From the NCBI GenBank assembly GCA_951406725.2, contig OX597832.1:65596001-65660000 (forward strand): DNA of 64,000 nt, read 5' to 3'. Below, piece by piece: positions 15,770-57,857 of this stretch; the stretch's first letter is position 1; each line of letters begins with the position of its first letter. The position numbers and the translations under genes were made by a program. This DNA is from Octopus vulgaris. Taxonomy: Eukaryota. Under the pieces are notes generated by a model. It did no database searches, was not told where the DNA came from, and was given only the letters and a program-made list of their open reading frames with translations.

Positions 15770-16667
15770 CTTCGAAAGTCCCGTCTGTGTGTTTTTTTGC
15801 CGTCTTCAAAATGTTTCACGTTCTTGTCCCAGTTTGTTTTTTTAACGTTTACCTATATACATGGCGGCTACGTACCCTACCCTTTAACCCTATACTGTAA
15901 GTATATTACTCTCTAACATTGGTACGACTCTACTACTCTGTCTCTTTTCCCCCCTCTCCTACTTTTCTCTGCCTTCACCCTTTTCACTCCCCTTGTTCTG
16001 TCTCTTTCCCTCTTTTTCTTCTCCTCCTTGTTCCCCTTCTTTCTTTCTCTCTTCCTCCGTCACTCCTCTCCCACATTTCTCTGCCTCTCAGACCTTATAC
16101 CCCACTTGACCTGTTCCTTTCCCTCTCCTGCTTCTCTCTTCATCTGTCCCTTCCTCCTTTTTGTGCTCACGTGACCAGCTAGCTACTACTGCCTTTCGCA
16201 TCAAGTAGTTGGCTTGACCACACGTATGTGTTTGTGCTCCGTTTGCCTTCAGGCATTTTTACCACAGCCAGCCCTATACTCAACTCGTCCTGTCGAAAGA
16301 CGCTTGTCCTGACGTCCTGGTTTTGTTATTATTGTTTTTACGTTATTTTGTATTTTTATCCGTGCTTTCTTTATTGTTTTTACGTATTTTTGAATTTTTT
16401 TTCGAGTAACATCCTCCGTTTTTCCGTCACCGTGTTGTATACTTTCGAGGTTTTCTTCCAAGGAATCTAATGCGATTGGCTTAGATTTCCCTTGGTTGGC
16501 TGCCCAGATTGGAGCAATCTCAAGATTAATCAGCCGAAATTGCGAAGATGATCTGGTTCTTGACTGATGACTGAGAGCTTCGAAAGTCCCGTCTGTGTGT
16601 TTTTTTGCCGTCTTCAAAATGTTTCACGTTCTTGTCCCAGTTTGTTTTTTTAACGTTTACCTATATA
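15770..16667 (+). mobile_element. Non-coding element bounded by identical 90-bp direct repeats (PLE pseudo-LTR-like)
   Basis: 15770-15859 is identical to 16578-16667 (period 808 bp); ends in (TA)n. Confidence 0.55.
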
Positions 16668-23331: not shown

Positions 23332-25929
23332 ATGATTGATTGATTGATTGATTCCAGTTCCAGCCTATGAGCTGTGGCCATGCTGGGGCACCGCCATTTG
23401 GTGTTGCTACTTGGTTTCACTTCATGGAGGCTTTCTAGCAACTGCTATTTGGTGCATGAGAGAGTTCGATGCAGCTGCCCTCATCTGCCCCTCCTGCCGT
23501 GAAGTTGGTTCATCTGGGACACCTGACAGGAAGAGATCCAGCTTCATTTTAAAGACATCTGTATCCACCCCATGCAGGTCTCTCAGGTTCTTCGGGAGGA
23601 TATTGAAGAGCTGTGGGCCTCGGAAGCCCAGGCTATCACAGAATCTTGTCCTACATCTTGATGGCAGGTTTGGAGTCCTAGGCACCACGCAGTGGCGCCC
23701 AGTTCTGGCATTTGTGTAACTCTCGATGCCAAAGTTCAGGACACTTCCCTCCAGGATCTTCCAGATGTATATTATGGCATATCTTTCCCGCCTACGCTCC
23801 AGGGAGTATAATTTTAATCTCTTGAGTCTTTCCCAGTAGCTTACATTCTGCATAGAGGCTATCTTCTTTGTGTAGCTTCGTTGGATCGCCTCAAGTTCTG
23901 TGATCAACTTGACACTGGATGGTGACCATAGCTGAGAGCAATAGTCAAAGTAGCTTAGGACAAGTGTCTTCCAGAGGACCATCATGGTTTCTTGTTCTCT
24001 TGTTCTAAAGGTTCTAAGAATCCAGCCAGCCAGCCGTCTACATTTCACTGTCAGTTTAGCAACATGTACATGAAAGGTCGCGTCATCACTCATGTGAATA
24101 CCCAGGTCACGCACTGATTGTGCCTCTGGGATTGCAATCCCTCCGGGTCCAGTGTATTCATTGGGTATTGCATTCAGTTTTGCATGCTGATAGTATAAAG
24201 CTTGAAACTTTCCAGCATTGAACTGCATGCTATTCTTTTCAGCCCACTTGTATATTTCGTCCAGCTCACATTGCAGGTTTTTAGTGTCCTCAGGGTTCTG
24301 TATTGCCTGTGAAACTTTTGTATCATCTGCATAACTTGTGATCGTGGATCTCTGCGTGGCTGAGGGCATGTCTGAGAGGGCCATTATGAACAGTAGTGGT
24401 CCCAAAACAGTGCCCTGTGGAACACCACTCATTATTTGCGTGTTAATGGAAGTGGCCCCATTGGCTACTACCACCTGACTTCTATTCTTCAGAAAGTCGT
24501 GAAGCCATTCTCCTAGTTTTCCAACTATGCCAAGATCACGCAGCCTGTGACATATCATTCCGTGATCGACTTTATCGAAGGCCTTTGCGAAGTCGAGATA
24601 TATGACTTCCACATTTGAGTGGTTGAGCAGTTGTTTCAGCACCCAGTCATAGTGCTGCAGGAGCTGAGTTAAGCAGCTTCTTCCTGGTCGGAAACCATGT
24701 TGGGTGTCAGGCAGCAAGTCATTTTCTTCAAGGAAGGTGATTAGTTTCCTTCTGACTATTCGTTCCATGACCTTGCTGATGTGTGAGGTCAGAGAGATAG
24801 GTCTGTAGTTCTTTGCCTCCGCTCTGCTACCTCCTTTATGAATAGGGCATATTTTACCTTCCTTCAGTCCCCTTGGAAGTTTGCCAGCTGCAAGGAAGCT
24901 CTGAAAGAGGGACTGCAGTGGTCTTGCTAAGACTCTCTTACATACTTTTAGGAGGATTGCCGGGAATCCATCGGGGCCAGTAGCTGAGTCTATTTTCATT
25001 TCATCTATAGCCTTTATTACATCGTCTTCCTTTATCTCGATGTAACTTATCGTCGCCGCCTCTGATTCTATATCTGCAGTGGTAAAGAAGTCAGTTGGAT
25101 TGCTGATTTGGAAATGCCCAAGGGGTGGAGTGAAAACACTCTTGAATTGTTCATTCAGTATTTCACTTACCCTCATTGGTTTTCCTGTGAGTGTGCCATC
25201 CTTTTCAAGGAGTGGCCCTATCCTACAGTGCACTGTAGCCGTTTCTTTGGCATACCTGTAGAAAGCTCTGGGGTTAGTTTTTATGTTGTCTATAGCCCAG
25301 GCTTCTTTGTCTGCTCTTTCCTTCTCATGGGAAAGTTGCAGACAATTTTCAATTTCCAACAGTTTTATTTTCAGGCGGGACTTTTCACTACTTTCAATTT
25401 GTTTGTTTAGGCGATTTGAAATTTTTGTACGCCGTCTCATTAAAATTTTCCTCTCTCTGGGGATTTTGTTCTTGTGTACAGTGGCCTTTCTCTCTGGGAC
25501 ACATTTGTAGCATATGGCTTGCATTACAGACATGAATTGTTGAAGTATCATGTCGATGTCCGGCGAGGAGAGACATTCAGGCCAGTTTTGTTTGAGGATC
25601 TCTTTCTCAATTTGTTTCCAGTTTGCCTTATTGAAGTTCAAGCTGGAAAGATTCTGAGGGTTTCTTGTAGGCTGCATGTCCGTGCTCTCTTTTGGCCCGT
25701 ACATGGTCAGCTCTACCATGTTGTGATCCGAGAGTAGTGTCGGTGTCACTTTCACATTATGGATGAGATCCATATTATTTGTGAAGCAGAGATCCAGTGT
25801 GTTACCTGCTCTGGTTGGTTGCAGTATTACTTGCTCCATGTACAGGGTGTTGGTGAGGTTCAGGAGGGACCTCGCCTGTCCACGTTCACATCTTGTCATT
25901 CCTGGGAGAGAAAGGCCCTCGGGCCATCT

Positions 25930-25932
<3 letters not shown>
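23332..25932 (-). mobile_element. 5'-truncated CR1-group (L2/Crack/Daphne/Kiri-like) LINE with (AATC)n tail
   Basis: Long open RT frame, short 3' UTR, (GATT)n on plus at 23335-23353, 5' end abuts (TA)n. Confidence 0.9.
23422..25931 (-). CDS. LINE ORF2: APE C-terminus plus complete reverse transcriptase (first 16 aa of the track ORF are microsatellite)
   Basis: PTRAGNTLDLCFT, SDHN, NYRPISLTS, QHGFRPGRSC, YLDFAKAFDKVDH, GVPQGTVLGPLLF, YADD; no stops over ~835 codons. Confidence 0.92.
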
Positions 25933-25973
<41 letters not shown>

Positions 25974-26249
25974 CATACAATAAAAGGTCTTTTATATATT
26001 GTATAAGGGAAAAAACTTGATAACGAGAATAATGATAGATGATTATTATTAAAATTGATTATTGTTAGAGTTAATGATTATTAAAATATGCACGTATTTA
26101 ATATACATACCGTAGCAGGTAGAATTTTTTGCTAATTTTCCTTATGTGTAAATACATTAAATTGTAGGGATATATATATATATATGTGTGTGTGTATGTG
26201 TGTGTGTGTGTGTATAAAATACATTCTTACACACACACGCAAACATACG

Positions 26250-30199: not shown

Positions 30200-33100
30200 T
30201 CAGGGAGTGACGACCCTGCCTGACACGAGTTCCGGGCTCAGCTTGCTCCGCCTGACAGTACCCGGTATGGGCCCCTATCCAGGGTTACGTAAAGGAGACA
30301 ACCTTCAAAGAAGTCCGGACTGGAGCCCCGAAGGCGGTTTAGTGTTCGACTCGACATTCTTCCGGCAGCTCCTGCAACCAAGCTGGTGCCAAACGTAATG
30401 CTCTGCACTCCTTTGGACTACGTCAGCAAGGTCGAGAGAGGAATCCTGACGATTGGGCTACCCAGGATTTTCTTATTTCTAGCCCAGGCCTGCACAAAAC
30501 TGGAGAGGACAGTTCAGTGCTGCTGTAAAAAGTGGCAGAAAAAACACGGGAGCTAACACTCACGAGTGATAAGTCCATTCAGATTGGCGTAAGATATGGG
30601 AACTACGGGTTACCTCAGACGGTGGGAGGGACCTCCCTGTTCTATCGGTTAGCTACTGCCCACCTCAAGCTGAGCAGCCCCTAGTTAATAAGGTGCTGAC
30701 CTGCCACAGGCCGCCTGCTTCATTGGTTGCTTGGAGCTAAGAGTTCGACTTGAAAAGCGGCCTGCAACATCTGCAGCAGGCAAACAACTAAAAGACAAGA
30801 AACCACCAGTCCTGCGGTTAGCAAGCTGGAATGTCAGGATCATGTGCCCTAGAATATCTGATGATCTACTCAGGGTTAAAGACACAAGAAAAACGGCCAT
30901 CATTGACCGTGAACTAAAGAGGCTCAACATAGACATTGCTGGGCTACAGGAGACAAGACTTCCCTCAAACGGCAAACTCAAAGAACAGGATTTCACCTTC
31001 TTTTGGCAGGAAGCGATCTTGAAGAACATCGTCAACATGGCGTTGGCTTTGCAGTGATAAACTCACTACTCTCCTCAATAGAACCACCATCAGGAGGCAC
31101 TGAACGTATCTTCTCACTGCACCTCTCGACTTCTTCTGGTTCAGTAAATCTAATGAGCATCTATGCTCCCACTCTCTACTGCTCAGAGGAGACCAAGGAC
31201 CAGTTCTACAAAGATCTCAACTGTGTCATTAAAAATATACCAACAAATGAAAACATTTACCTTCTAGAGGATTTTAACGCTCGCGTGGGATCTGACCATG
31301 ATTCATGACCCATTTCTGTTGGACACTTTGGTATTGGCAACATGAATGACAATGGTCAGAGACTACTTGAATTTTGCACATACCATAACCTGTGCATCAC
31401 AAACACATTCTTTGCCAACAAGCCATCCCACAAGGCATCTTGGAGACATCCAAAATCTCACCACTGGCATCAGCTGGATCTCATCATTACACGAAGATCC
31501 TTTCTGAATTCTGTACAACTGACCCGCAGTTACCACAGCGCGGGTTGTGACACAGATCACTCACTAATTAGGGTGAGGATTCTGCCTAAAAATGTCCATC
31601 ACTCCAAGAAAATGGACCAACCACGCATTAACACTGCCAGAACCTCGAACCGTACGCTGCGAAAATGTTTTGCTGCTTCTATCAAGGTTGCCCTCAGTAG
31701 CTGCCCAACCTCCTCTGCTGAAAGTAGGTGGAATTATATCAGGGAAGCTTTGTATACCACATTGATAGATACTTTCGGCATGAGAGAAAAGCAAAACCCA
31801 GATTGGTTCAATGCTGGGCTCTCAGAGCTGGAACTAATTATCGAAGCAAAGCGTGCAGCTATGATGCAATAAAAGAGTGATTCTTCTACAAAGTCATTCG
31901 AAGAACTCAGAAAGGCAAGAAATAAAACCCAACAGACAGCCAGACGCTGTGCAAATAGGTATTGGCAGGAAATATGTCAGAGTATCCAGTCAGCTGCTGA
32001 CAGTGGCGACACCCGTGAGATGTATGCCGGTTTGAAGAAGGCCCTCGGTCCATCCGCAACCAAGTCAGCCCCTCTGAAATCAACTACTGGAGATCTCATC
32101 AGGGATCAAAGCAAGCAAATGGATAGATGGGTGGAGCACTACCAGGATCTCTACTCACGGAAGACTACACCAGCTGAGGCCGCAATCGAGAGTGTCAAAA
32201 TCTTGCCAGTCATGTGCGAACTTGACAGTCCGCCATCTATAGCAGAGCTCACCAAGGCTATTGACTCCCTAGCAAGCAACAAGGCTCCGGGAAAAGACGA
32301 CATCCCCTCAGAGATCATCAAAACCGGCAAAACCACCATTCAGCTTCGGCACCTTCATGAGCTTCTGTGTCAGTGCTGACACAGAAGAAAGTACAGTCCC
32401 TCAGGATATGCGGGATGCTAACATCATTACACTTTACAAAAACAAAGGTGACCGTTGTGATTGTAACAATTACCGTGGAATATCTCTTCTAAGCACTGTT
32501 GGAAAGACATTTGCCCGCTTTATCCTGGCCAGGCTACAACTACTTGCTTCTCGAATTTATCCGGAATCGCAGTGTGGCTTTAGAAGAGGCAGATCAACTA
32601 TTGACATGGTATTCTCAATAAGCCAACTTCAGGAGAAGTCAAGAGAGCAGAAAATGCCATTATATATGGCCTTCATTAATCTAACAAAGGCCTTTGACTT
32701 GGTAAATAGAAAAAGCCTCTTCATCCTACTCCAAAAAATCGGATGTCCACCAAAGCTGCTGAGGATCATCAAGTCTTTCCATGATGATATGCAAGGCACC
32801 ATACAGCACAATGGTTCAACATCAGCCGCCTTCCAAAAAAAAAAAAAAAACAGGGTAAAGCAAGGTTGTGTCCTTGCTCCTACATTATTTGGCATCCTTT
32901 TCTCGCTCTTGCTCTCACATGCCTTTCAGACATGATGGAGTGTTTCTTCACAGTAGAATTGACGGGAAACTGTTCAATCTCTCGCGCCTGCGTGCCAAAA
33001 CCAAAATCAGAAGCGTCCTGATCAAGGAAATGCTATTTGCTGATGATACCGTTCTGGTATCACACACAGAAGAAGCCCTCCAAAGGCTCATCAACTGTTT

Positions 33101-40960: not shown

Positions 40961-41003
<43 letters not shown>

Positions 41004-41046
41004 AATATATATACAGTTATATATATATATATATAAATATATATAA

Positions 41047-41925
41047 GTTAGATGTGTTCCAGAGGAAAATAGTAGAAATTACTTCTTTTTCAGCTCTACA
41101 ACAATGTCCAGCAAACTGGACTCTCTTACCTTTCACAAGAGATGACACAGGTGGTAGTTTCCCATATATTTGCATTTTGGTTGGATGGCGCTTCCACGAG
41201 AGATTTTGAGCTCTCATAAGGAGGCGAGTGTAGGTTCCATCCAACCGCCTCTCAAGCTTCTTTGATAACGTCCAGGTTTCTGAGCCATATAGTAGAATTG
41301 GTTCGACCGTGGCTTTAAATATTTCAAGTTTGAAGTCTCTACTTAGATTTGATGACCAGATCTTATGCATGTCATTACAGGCTGACCAGGCCATACCCTT
41401 TCTAGTTAGAAAGTATTTTCCAGATGATGATATGTATGACCCAAGATATTTATAATCAGAAACCATATTTAAGGGCGCATTGTTGAGAGTATGGATGATG
41501 CAATCACTGTTGGACAGGCACTTGTTTATGTATTCAGTTTTGGCCTCATTGAGGTAAAGACCTACACAATTTGAGGCTTGTTCAAGAGATTGTAAAAGAG
41601 ACTGGGCATTGGAGAGAGAATCACTGATAAGAGCGATGTCGTCAGCAAAGTCAGTGTCTGTCAAGTACTCAGCTGGAACTTCTTCTTGGTTTTATTTCAA
41701 AGCCCTTGCCAGAGATGGTATCAACTGACATACGTAGCACATAATCAACAACAATGATGAAAAGAAATGGGGCGAGTGTGTCTCCCTGCAGTATTCCGGC
41801 TTTGATTGAGAAAGATGATGTTTCTCCGTCAGGGATTAAGATGGTTGAAGACGTATCTGTGTAGAGGATCTTGATGGCAGAAATGATTTTGTCTGGTATC
41901 CCATAGAGCTTAAGGATTTCAAATC
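41047..41925 (-). mobile_element. RTE-clade LINE RT fragment
   Basis: YGIPDKII, GILQGDTLAPFLFIIVVDYVLR, DFADDIAL, YKYLGS, LLYGSETW; one frameshift near 41667. Confidence 0.9.
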
Positions 41926-51216: not shown

Positions 51217-51646
51217 TCCTTTCTACGATAGACACAAGGCCTGAAATTCTGGGCAAGGGCCGTAGTCGATTGCGTTGATCTCATTACATGACTAGTACTT
51301 TTTTATAGTCCCCGGGAGGACGAAATCGTAAAGTCAACTCCGGGAGAATTTGAACTCAGAACGTAAATACGAACGAAATACATCAAAGCATTTTGCCGGC
51401 GTGTTAGCGATTCCGCCAACACGCCATCTTTCTGACAATAAATAATGCTTTTAAATTTTGGCATCAAGGCCAACACTTTTGTGGGAGAGGTTTGTCGACC
51501 CCAGTTCTTAGTTGGTATTTGCTTTATTGATCGTGAATGATAAAAGCAAAGTCGATCTCCACGGAATTGGAATTCAGAACGTAGAGAGGGGAACTGGCAC
51601 TAAGCGTTTTGTTGAGCGGGCTTGCATTTCTGGTCTTTCGCCGCGT
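51217..51646 (-). mobile_element. Two old SINE family B copies
   Basis: Diverged matches: aaagtcaactcc..gaatttgaactcagaacgta and aaagtcgatctcc..gaattggaattcagaacgta. Confidence 0.7.
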
Positions 51647-52478
51647 TAATCATAATGATTAAAACTCCCATTAAAAAACCAACTTAGTATGCGGAAATAG
51701 GTTATCAATTAAACCAACATCCGTTTTGAATTCTTACTTATTTTGTTGTCAAATTTATGACAGACTGAAATCGATCTTAATTAGAGTTGAACAAAAAAAC
51801 AAAACAAAAAACAACAACAACAAATTCAGGAAAGGAACAGAATACCCTAATCCGCTTTCCCGATGCTCTGTTATTTCTACTCCTCTGCTAATAGTGCTGT
51901 ATGATGCAATGTATTGAAGTGTCTCATTGTGACTAATACATGTTCAAATGGAGAGGAAATAGATTAATTTTATATTGAATGCAACAGTTAGTATCATGAA
52001 ATATGCATCGTTCGTGTGGGCATGTAAATTTGTAATTCATATTAGTAATCAGAATGGTTTTACAGTGAAATGAAAGTCGATGAGGTATTTTACAATTATA
52101 GTTGGAATTTAATGTTTACCCTTCGTTAGTTTTGTTTTTCAAGTAATGTGTTTTCATTTCAATTTAATGTAATTTTCTAACAAAGTATTCATTTAGTATA
52201 TATCTTTGAAAGCACTTAGTTCACTGAAGTCAGTTTTTGTCATGTAACTTTGATGTTCGTAGTAATCGCAAACGGTATATTTAGTCCAATTTATTTGTTT
52301 CAGTAACGTTGTGTGATTTGGAATTTGTAATTATATGAATATACATTATTTGTTAGCATTTGAAGAAATACAACAAACTTTGTATCAATTTCCTTTTGAA
52401 GTGCTTGATATCAAGTAGCTATGTAAAATGTGACATCTATCTATCTATCTATCTCTGCATATATATATATATATATGC

Positions 52479-52572
<94 letters not shown>

Positions 52573-52836
52573 ACATTCATACATATTTATATATATATAT
52601 ATATATATATAATTAATCAATATAGGGTGGCAAAAAAATTTTGTAGAATTCTTTTGCCACCAGCGGCCTAGTGGGAAAAAATTAAATAGTCATAAACCAT
52701 TTTTAAGTTCAACATCACAATCAAGGAACGGCCATAATAGGCCATTCACCCACTAGAAATAACAGCCAAAACCTTTAACCGCAAAATAACGTCAATTCCG
52801 TAAACCAGGAGAAAATTAAAAAACATTTACCCTGTA

Positions 52837-52943
52837 ATTTCTTAGACGATGCACCGTTTCATCTACTGTTTAATGGAAAACTAACCTGATTAAATTAAAT
52901 CAAGCCAATCTACCATAGGCCCTTAGATTCATCAGTAAGAAAT
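52837..52943 (-). ncRNA. Type I hammerhead ribozyme, unit 1
   Basis: atttctta-CTGATGA-atcta...tagat-GAAA-cggtgcatcg-TC-taagaaat. Confidence 0.88.
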
Positions 52944-53325
52944 AGCCAAGCCGGAACAGATATTTTTCACGAGGCATTCTCGTTGCTACCTCGTCAATAT
53001 CTGACCTAAAATTTTCAAATCGTCGCACTCGCGCCAAATTTATCGGCAGCAAATAAATATAAGCCGCCGATTCCATTACGGAATTAACCAGAAAATTCAT
53101 AATTAATCAATATAGGGTGGCAAAAAATTTTGTAGAATTCTTTTGCCACCAGCGGCCTAGTGGGAAAAAATTAAATAGTCATAAACCATTTTTAAGTTCA
53201 ACATCACAATCAAGGAACGGCCATAATAGGCCATTCACCCACTAGAAATAACAGCCAAAACCTTTAACCGCAAAATAACGTCAATTCCGTAAACCGGGAG
53301 AAAATTAAAAAACATTTACCCTGTA

Positions 53326-53432
53326 ATTTCTTAGACGATGCACCGTTTCATCTACTGTTTAATGGAAAACTAACCTGATTAAATTAAATCAAGCCAATCT
53401 ACCATAGGCCCTTAGATTCATCAGTAAGAAAT
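53326..53432 (-). ncRNA. Type I hammerhead ribozyme, unit 2
   Basis: Same sequence as unit 1. Confidence 0.88.
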
Positions 53433-53816
53433 AGCCAAGCCGGAACAGATATTTTTCACGAGGCATTCTCGTTGCTACCTCGTCAATATCTGACCTAAAA
53501 TTTTCAAATCGTCGCACTCGCGCCAAATTTATCGGCAGCAAATAAATATAAGCCGCCGATTCCATTACGGAATTAACCAGAAAATTCATAATTAATCAAT
53601 ATAGGGTGGCAAAAAAATTTTGTAGAATTCTTTTGCCACCAGCGGCCTAGTGGGAAAAAAATTAAATAGTCATAAACCATTTTTAAGTTCAACATCACAA
53701 TCAAGGAACGGCCATAATAGGCCATTCACCCACTAGAAATAACAGCCAAAACCTTTAACCGCAAAATAACGTCAATTCCGTAAACCAGGAGAAAATTAAA
53801 AAACATTTACCCTGTA

Positions 53817-53923
53817 ATTTCTTAGACGATGCACCGTTTCATCTACTGTTTAATGGAAAACTAACCTGATTAAATTAAATCAAGCCAATCTACCATAGGC
53901 CCTTAGATTCATCAGTAAGAAAT
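53817..53923 (-). ncRNA. Type I hammerhead ribozyme, unit 3
   Basis: Same sequence as unit 1. Confidence 0.88.
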
Positions 53924-54444
53924 AGCCAAGCCGGAACAGATATTTTTCACGAGGCATTCTCGTTGCTACCTCGTCAATATCTGACCTAAAATTTTCAAAT
54001 CGTCGCACTCGCGCCAAATTTATCGGCAGCAAATAAATATAAGCCGCCGATTCCATTACGGAATTAACCAGAAAATTCATAATTAATCAATATAGGGTGG
54101 CAAAAAAATTTTGTAGAATTCTTTTGCCACCAGCGGCCTAGTGGGAAAAAATTAAATAGTCATAAACCATTTTTAAGTTCAACATCACAATCAAGGAACG
54201 GCCATAATTTTTCCCACTAGGCCGCTGGTGGCAAAAGAATTCTACAAAATTCTACAAAATTTTTTTGCCACCCTATATTGATTAATTATGAATTTTCTGG
54301 TTAATTCCGTAATGGAATCGGTGGCTTATATTTATTTGCTGCCGATAAATTTGGCGCGAGTGCGATGATTTGAAAATTTTAGGTCAGATATTGACGAGGT
54401 AGCAACGAGAATGACTCGTGAAAAATATCTGTTCCGGCTTGGCT

Positions 54445-54547
54445 ATTTCTTACTGATGAATCTAAGCTATGTAGATTGGCTTGATTTAATTTAATCAGGT
54501 TAGTTTTCCATTAAACAGTAGATGAAACGGTGCATCGTCTAAGAAAT
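54445..54547 (+). ncRNA. Type I hammerhead ribozyme, inverted arm
   Basis: Stem I 54445-54452/54540-54547, CTGATGA 54453-54459, GAAA 54524-54527, GTC 54537-54539; 4 nt shorter inside the stem II insert. Confidence 0.88.
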
Positions 54548-54662
54548 TACAGGGTAAATGTTTTTAATTTTCTCCTGGTTTACGGATTGACGTTATTTTG
54601 CGGTTAAAGTTTTGGCTGTTATTTCTAGTGGGTGAATGGCCTATTATGGCCGTTCCTTGATT

Positions 54663-54723
<61 letters not shown>

Positions 54724-57608: not shown

Positions 57609-57857
57609 TATTTCTTTACTACCCACAATAGGCTAACCACAGAGAGGACAAACAAGGACAGACAAATGGATTAAGTAGATTATATCGACCCCAGTGCGTA
57701 ACTGGTAGTTATTTAATCGATCCCGAAAGGATGAAAGGTAAAGTTGACCTCGGCGGAATTTGAACTCACAACGTAACGACAGACGAAATGCGGCTATGCA
57801 TTTCGCCCGGCATGCTAACGTTTCTGCCAGGTCGCCGCCTTGTCAAGCTCGCCGCCT
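57609..57857 (-). mobile_element. SINE family B with 23-bp TSD
   Basis: TSD ttgtc(g/c)tttcaatcatttatacc at 57586-57608 and 57858-57880. Confidence 0.88.

Follow-up and report, generated by a model that had tools for sequence, protein, structure and literature searches.

The motif analysed here belongs to a head-to-head array of a 491-bp unit, which lies in a 64-kb window of the octopus genome (the window being the whole stretch of DNA that was analysed). As outlined in Table 1, the array is composed of two unequal arms and is bordered on both sides by (AT)n. All four hammerheads of the window belong to this unit, and the GC content around the element is 32–34%. Two 70-nt copies (76% identical) of a common dispersed SINE-like repeat flank the element at 51328–51397 and 57738–57807. 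Elsewhere in the window an 878-codon open frame (23425–26058, minus strand) is probably an intact LINE-type RT ORF, and more RT fragments lie near 30800–33100 and 41000–41700. The plus-strand sequence CUGAUGA...GAAAGUC at 16564–16595, which has a weak short stem II, is a possible minimal hammerhead relic; the type I descriptor gave no match there.

Table 1. Positions of the array, its arms and its hammerheads in the window.
Feature	Positions	Strand	Remarks
Complete insertion (491-bp units joined head to head)	52609..54666	.	
Left arm, 3.3 tandem units	52609..54208	-	ribozyme sense on minus strand; 3' end = unit position 237 ("tail" end)
Right arm, 0.9 unit	54209..54666	+	3' end = unit position 131 (short end)
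Head-to-head (5'-to-5') arm junction	54208..54209	.	1-nt overlap
"Tail" (unit 132–237) between the two fixed 3' end sites	52609..52714	-	~106 nt; at this end only
Target microsatellite (AT)n left of the insertion	52459..52611	.	
Target microsatellite (AT)n right of the insertion	54666..54714	.	
Type I hammerhead under study	54445..54547	+	103 nt; predicted cut after C at 54539
Stem II, 54460–54464 paired with distal 54519–54523	54460..54523	+	closes the insert
Unbranched rod inside the stem II insert	54469..54511	+	18 bp in family form; proximal UAGAU at 54472–54476
Near-palindromic stem III	54527..54538	+	12 nt; predicted 12-bp inter-unit helix
Hammerhead, family form (107 nt)	53817..53923	-	C17 at 53825
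Hammerhead, family form	53326..53432	-	C17 at 53334
Hammerhead, family form	52837..52943	-	C17 at 52845

The copy at 54445–54547 combines an 8-bp stem I, the CUGAUGA box, a 54-nt stem II insert, GAA and C17 at 54539. As described in the initial annotation, stem III (acggug/caucgu) is self-complementary and virtually loopless, forming six pairs including one G-U, and stem II closes with aucua/uagau around an insert that had been given as about 55 nt. The type I descriptor yielded exactly four matches in the window and none in 30 shuffles of it, and the matched sequences show the CUGANGA...GAAA...UH core, three helices and an open stem I. An Rfam scan of the motif returned no hammerhead match at gathering score or E ≤ 10, just AT-repeat and hairpin noise. 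The copy is atypical in one respect: its insert is 4 nt shorter than in the family form, which was the case for one of 138 copies at 40 loci.

As a rule, hammerheads (with the core given in PMC4209133) tolerate any base at N7, keep the other core bases fixed and do not carry G at N17. In 279 hammerhead copies drawn from 99 fetched loci position 7 was occupied by U (196), A (49), C (22) or G (11), with CUGANGA otherwise intact in 277 and GAA in 278 of them. The motif is therefore kept across genomic copies, a comparison the initial annotation had called for, with a core that is near-invariant save N7. Position 17 was always C (189) or A (90), and a genome-wide search for the G17 pattern gave no match, compared with about 2,600 H17 copies. 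With N7 variable, the rest of the core fixed and G17 missing, the pattern corresponds to selection of the catalytic type. Judged by its sequence, the motif at 54445–54547 is a genuine type I hammerhead, for which self-cleavage is predicted. The UGA/GA tandem, which we take to be the hammerhead's own G-A tandem, had also been considered as part of a SECIS element, and this reading was dropped on that ground.

The family was then followed through the 2.8-Gb genome (227 contigs). A DNA search with the unit, in which 40 of 1040 candidates were scored, yielded 209 matches, mostly at 98–100% identity. Three disjoint exact patterns taken from the hammerhead 3' half gave 962, 860 and 778 matches, each control giving 0, so that their sum puts the family at about 2,600 copies genome-wide. 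At least three subfamilies, up to ~10% apart, were distinguished, and those 5–10% apart retain the 491-nt period and the catalytic pattern. For closer analysis 100 loci were sampled, comprising the window, the 39 best DNA matches and, per pattern, the first 20 unfetched clusters in list order. Genome searches for short-stem-II relatives with the same stem III gave 0 matches, and those for long-insert relatives with a different stem I gave 13 against 10 in the control, one of the 13 being a family member.

The unit contains no conserved ORF, the longest stop-to-stop frame within it being 68 aa, and the RT and GIY-YIG ORF that defines an autonomous Penelope-like element (PLE) was looked for in the unit arrays and is absent from them. 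A 66-aa ORF starting at the tail end stays open in 194 unit segments from a sample in which the youngest subfamily is strongly represented; since stop codons or frameshifts interrupt it in other subfamilies, it was rejected as coding. The unit is also covered by contigs from three runs that presumably represent RNA, which we count neither for nor against expression. The copies are dispersed and recently mobile, as retrozymes are, and from its sequence features the element is likely a non-LTR retrozyme with a variant, long-stem-II hammerhead.

With respect to stem II, the initial annotation had proposed a large branched architecture. The large insert was borne out, but not the branching: the insert folds as one 18-bp rod after a 7 × 7 internal loop (99% paired, 22 haplotypes), the presumed hairpin uggcuugauu/aaucagguua forms the core of this single rod, and the pairing probability of the second one, guuu/aaac, is 0.017 in the 54445–54547 copy and 0.0 in the family form. 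A second uagau does follow aucua within the 7–11 nt that had been noted (7 nt in this copy, 11 nt in the other three window copies). It had been suggested to sequester aucua in a local hairpin and to act as a folding switch, by which the nascent or circular RNA would be held inactive. The probability of this proximal pairing is 0.02 in the 54445–54547 copy and, whichever flank length was used, ~6 × 10−7 in the family form, which speaks against sequestration.

The genomic copies argue in the same direction. Among 272 full-length copies (the 279 minus seven dropped for indels) the proximal 5-mer reads UAGAU in just 147, AAGAU in 84, UGGAU in 39 and otherwise in 2. In 13 of 22 haplotypes the proximal alternative has lost its outer pair without any compensatory change, whereas the distal stem II pair changed from A-U to G-C in 7 of 22, and the distal partner alone covaries; where the outer stem II base is G, the proximal 5-mer is AAGAU in 54/54 and the distal one CAGAU in 53/54 copies. 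The active structure showed 12 two-sided cells, a value reached by none of 500 shuffles, although relatedness inflates these counts, which amount to two events. For the proximal alternative no two-sided cells were obtained and all 500 shuffles reached the observed pairing. Covariation across copies, which had been named as a check, thus backs the active stem II and gives nothing for the switch. It is true that four of the five proximal pairs can still form in most haplotypes (85.5% of cells paired) and that a brief co-transcriptional hairpin is possible before the 3' strand of the rod exists. Nevertheless, the conservation of the proximal bases is explained by the rod, and we regard a switch as extremely improbable. 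Instead, we propose that the stable rod sequesters the proximal UAGAU, so that the correct stem II would be enforced rather than switched.

The rod is near-invariant including its loop (e.g. window 54474–54506) and holds GATTGG, a box that is also repeated in the pseudo-LTR (pLTR) of an autonomous PLE family described below; it might at the same time serve as a promoter element in the DNA or as a site for a protein. Furthermore, a conserved GGCC of the stem II internal loop could pair with a GGCU that immediately precedes stem I (window 53898–53901 and 53924–53927, minus strand). The resulting candidate 4-bp pseudoknot has been lost from the 54445–54547 copy together with its GGCC. This pairing resembles the stem I–II pseudoknots that about 40% of hammerheads use according to the accessible text of PMC3088659, and a role as helix I–II tertiary contact is put forward from the sequence as a hypothesis only.

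For stem III, folding was evaluated with energy models that leave out Mg2+ and tertiary contacts. Thereby, the 12-mer was worth about −0.2 kcal/mol as a hairpin compared with −17.5 as a 12-bp self-duplex. A lone hammerhead in the window's family form reached an active fraction of ~0.001, its best fold pairing the core GAUGA with UCGUC, and in a two-hammerhead transcript of the same form the double hammerhead was the unconstrained best fold (−197.1 versus −187.8 for the monomer-active one). Ten further loci, picked to span the subfamilies, were treated in the same manner: in nine of them stem III was cross-paired in the two-unit minimum-energy fold, by 6.3–12.8 kcal/mol over the monomer-active fold, and the lone active fraction was at most 0.016 in all ten.

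Natural variants of stem III bear on the same question. In one large subfamily (5/22 haplotypes) the centre changed from GC to AT, a compensatory change that keeps a pair formable only between two units and that represents a single event. Of the 860 non-G-centre copies the first 100 listed were read: the AT centre was seen in 87, a fully palindromic stem III with this centre in 4, and a mismatch in the remaining nine (A-C in 8, U-C in 1). At one locus (L192, G000:C1:28881200-28887300), whose array is apparently intermediate between the GC and AT subfamilies, all seven hammerheads carry the A-C mismatch at the stem III centre, and the monomer fold wins by 1.4 kcal/mol. As the mismatch form fills both arms of this array, it was mobile.

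Alternatively, the same retrozyme could cleave efficiently as a monomer by means of a 3–4-bp stem III and a tertiary contact such as the GGCC/GGCU pseudoknot, the palindrome then serving as a backup or being left over from earlier use. The sequence does allow a 4-bp stem III capped by a tetraloop, the mismatch-centre locus was mobile, and the GGCU:GGCC pairing, of a kind common in hammerheads as mentioned above, is possible in 260 of 269 copies while the adjoining bases vary. Among invertebrate retrozymes, hammerheads whose helix III has just 2 bp are efficient as single units, whereas those of axolotl need dimers (available part of PMC7229834). Moreover, the first hammerhead of a transcript is made ~490 nt ahead of its partner and could therefore cut alone. 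Against efficient monomer cleavage stand the low lone active fractions in 10/10 loci, the full self-complementarity that the loop bases retain via a double change, and the lack of covariation in the pseudoknot. We consider this reading unlikely. Dimer-favoured cleavage, as predicted from the folding models, is in our judgement probable, and dimer-enhanced cleavage is described for axolotl retrozyme hammerheads in the accessible text of PMC7229834. A strict need for the dimer appears doubtful. Consequently, the earlier suggestion that cleavage may require two adjacent units was retained with regard to the dimer, on the basis of folding and one compensatory change, and not upheld with regard to the word "require", since monomers with a 2-bp helix III cleave (PMC7229834, in part).

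The insertions themselves were analysed with unit positions numbered from the hammerhead cut site. Of 101 insertions, 70 had both arms at defined ends, 22 were one-armed and 9 had an end elsewhere. Each of the 70 two-armed insertions, five of which have one very short arm that was recognised by its motif, pairs one ~131 end with one ~237 end, and none has two alike. (AT)n adjoins all 163 defined ends of the BLAST-mapped arms. Both arms extend about one unit or more past the end piece in 16 insertions, and unit alignments over the 100 loci revealed unit-only arrays of up to ~11 units without a long internal insert. At the arm junctions an overlap of at least 4 nt was found in 16 of 45 gapless cases, compared with 2.3% expected, while 25 of the 70 junctions show gaps or extra bases instead of overlap. 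Arms within one locus differ by 0.4% versus 3.5% between loci, indicating a common haplotype. In looking for traces of a circular or a linear multimeric template, we found private variants carried by every unit of the two arms at 7 of 51 loci, but also 25 variants that only some of the units share, with no consistent register. Classical single-template twin priming was rejected, the junctions being scattered over the unit rather than placed at the second priming site.

These insertions thus comprise partial tandems, an inverted 5'-truncated copy, a tail at one end and a microsatellite bias. The inverted 5'-truncated copy, one-end tail and microsatellite bias are given as the PLE footprint in the accessible text of PMC8557442, and for the Poseidon element two internal RT start sites, AT-rich cutting and the extension of both strands have been described in vitro (PMC11167929, in part). 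The initial annotation had tentatively ascribed the tandem format to two-unit cleavage. The insertion process is the better explanation, as the tandem format follows from multi-unit copying primed at two fixed sites. A need for the dimer may decide which copies spread again, and the creation of the arrays is not due to it.

The same footprint could be produced if the unit were the pseudo-LTR of a yet-unfound autonomous PLE, with the arrays as its truncated copies and a hammerhead dispensable for insertion. PLE are known for a tail, for inversion and for microsatellite targeting (PMC8557442, in part), hammerhead mutants of PAc left in vitro insertion unaffected according to the available text of PMC11167929, and 150 of 6136 GIY-YIG candidates were scored in our partner search. 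However, unit-only arrays run to ~11 units with (AT)n at every defined end and no long insert, and the maintenance of the 491-nt period together with the catalytic pattern implies selection at the level of the unit. We therefore regard this possibility as highly improbable.

Taken together, motif, copy number, conservation pattern and insertion geometry are established, and the explanation that we consider the most probable is that every 491-bp non-coding retrozyme unit carries a hammerhead, is likely copied by PLE proteins and is predicted to be cleaved mainly as a double hammerhead. According to this proposal, a multi-unit transcript would be made in which a lone unit folds mostly inactive, because of its marginal stem III hairpin and, in C17 copies, the GAUGA:UCGUC core pairing. 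The 12-nt palindromes of adjacent units would then join as a 12-bp helix, giving two active cores and releasing a 491-nt monomer, which, once circular, would be guarded against re-cutting. A Penelope-type RT/GIY-YIG protein would cut both (AT)n strands, cDNAs would be primed at unit positions ~131 and ~237 on the same RNA species, with one to ten units being copied, and the two cDNA ends would be joined by microhomology to give the head-to-head array. A bolder version, which we put forward tentatively and regard as rather unlikely, is that an obligate double hammerhead counts units, multimers being cut and the circle immune, and that a Penelope RT dimer simultaneously copies this circle from the two fixed sites, with one strand of the cut (AT)n used for each, the two cDNAs serving as mutual primers for the second strands. 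If this were true, both double-hammerhead selection and the way in which PLE complete the second strand would be recorded, naturally and at genome scale, in this family.

The following comparisons refer to the accessible portions of the cited papers. Metazoan non-LTR retrozymes (PMC7229834; 10.64898/2026.07.22.740005) are likewise non-coding, AT-rich tandem units with a type I hammerhead each, and share the proposed PLE dependence; the dimer-enhanced cleavage reported for axolotl (PMC7229834) has its predicted counterpart in octopus. Their units typically measure 150–450 nt, with up to 972 reported, the octopus unit having 491 nt. The octopus family differs from them by its 107-nt hammerhead with the 58-nt stem II rod, by A-U instead of G-C at 10.1–11.1, by the 12-nt stem III palindrome in place of 1–2 bp and a tetraloop, and by arrays that are dispersed, joined head to head, set in (AT)n and bounded by two fixed ends; the octopus family is known from DNA.

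In analogy to the octopus motif, PLE hammerheads, both minimal and Drosophila/shrimp-type (PMC4209133), are of type I with a palindromic helix III and an enlarged helix II, and a double hammerhead is predicted for both. In contrast to these, no ORF-bearing element was found with the octopus hammerhead in its pLTR. The palindromic 15.2–16.2 plus loop 3 that characterises the minimal class in PMC4209133 is present here, whereas that class has no or a very short helix III and a helix I of 4–5 bp, compared with 12 nt and 8 bp in the octopus motif. Its G10.1-C11.1 pair is replaced by A-U in most copies (G-U in ~31, U-U in 8), and no bulge corresponds to the extra base between positions 9 and 10.1 (PMC4209133). 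The palindromic stem III had been called the hallmark of PLE minimal hammerheads; the palindrome stands, but with a 12-nt helix III and an 8-bp helix I the motif falls outside the strict minimal class. A fully pairable stem and loop III is already known from repeat-type hammerheads (PMC3088659): in the Aedes aegypti type, stem III and loop III pair between ribozymes over 10 bp, compared with 12 bp in octopus, and the octopus family is set apart by its long stem II rod and by a natural compensatory loop change.

Insertions of EN+ PLE (PMC8557442; PMC11167929) likewise show partial tandems, an inverted 5'-truncated copy, a tail at one end, microsatellite or AT-rich targets and two RT start sites downstream of the hammerhead. 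The octopus family has no ORF, a tail of ~106 nt versus 30–40, arms that both often comprise several units, and the strict pairing of short and tail ends (70/70). In the literature covered, mainly open-access main texts, no paper was found that treats the octopus 491-bp family, a 58-nt stem II rod in type I hammerheads of animals or a rule of end pairing backed by counts; alignments of similar variants may be contained in supplementary files. Double-hammerhead cleavage and the mobilisation of retrozymes by PLE have both been proposed in print with limited direct support. With respect to the former, bases whose pairing is possible only between units have undergone a compensatory change in nature, and the family also supplies mismatch and perfect-palindrome variants for a side-by-side assay; with respect to the latter, the strict end pairing constrains how PLE proteins use two start sites and complete the second strand. 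Such families can be missed, as the long stem II lies beyond the usual short-helix descriptors and Rfam.

Finally, 40 GIY-YIG loci were fetched in the search for a PLE partner. A young autonomous PLE family is present in the genome, with an intact 781-aa RT and GIY-YIG frame, (AT)n ends and a 40-nt tail; among 18 of its insertions examined two were inverted, and each of these two combines both kinds of end. Between the unit and this family's pLTR no homology was detectable, nor was any found in 39 of the 40 loci, the lone match (L072) being a separate 53-nt fragment in (AT)n. As no sequence common with the unit was detectable, the 781-aa PLE is regarded as a candidate partner only. A representative copy (L093:1244-6460; also L090–L106) is one of many with intact 781-aa frames, preceded by a 479-aa ORF, and in its pLTR region of ~504 bp the boxes TGACGTC and GATTGG recur. 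A candidate minimal hammerhead with a U3-A8 core (UUGAUAA...GAAACAUGUU), in which a 5-bp stem II and a palindromic stem III were read by eye, lies in L093 about 75 nt upstream of the 3' end of the pLTR; the minimum-energy fold did not yield a hammerhead. A second, divergent PLE family with a 574-aa RT and GIY-YIG frame was observed at L107:3582-5303.
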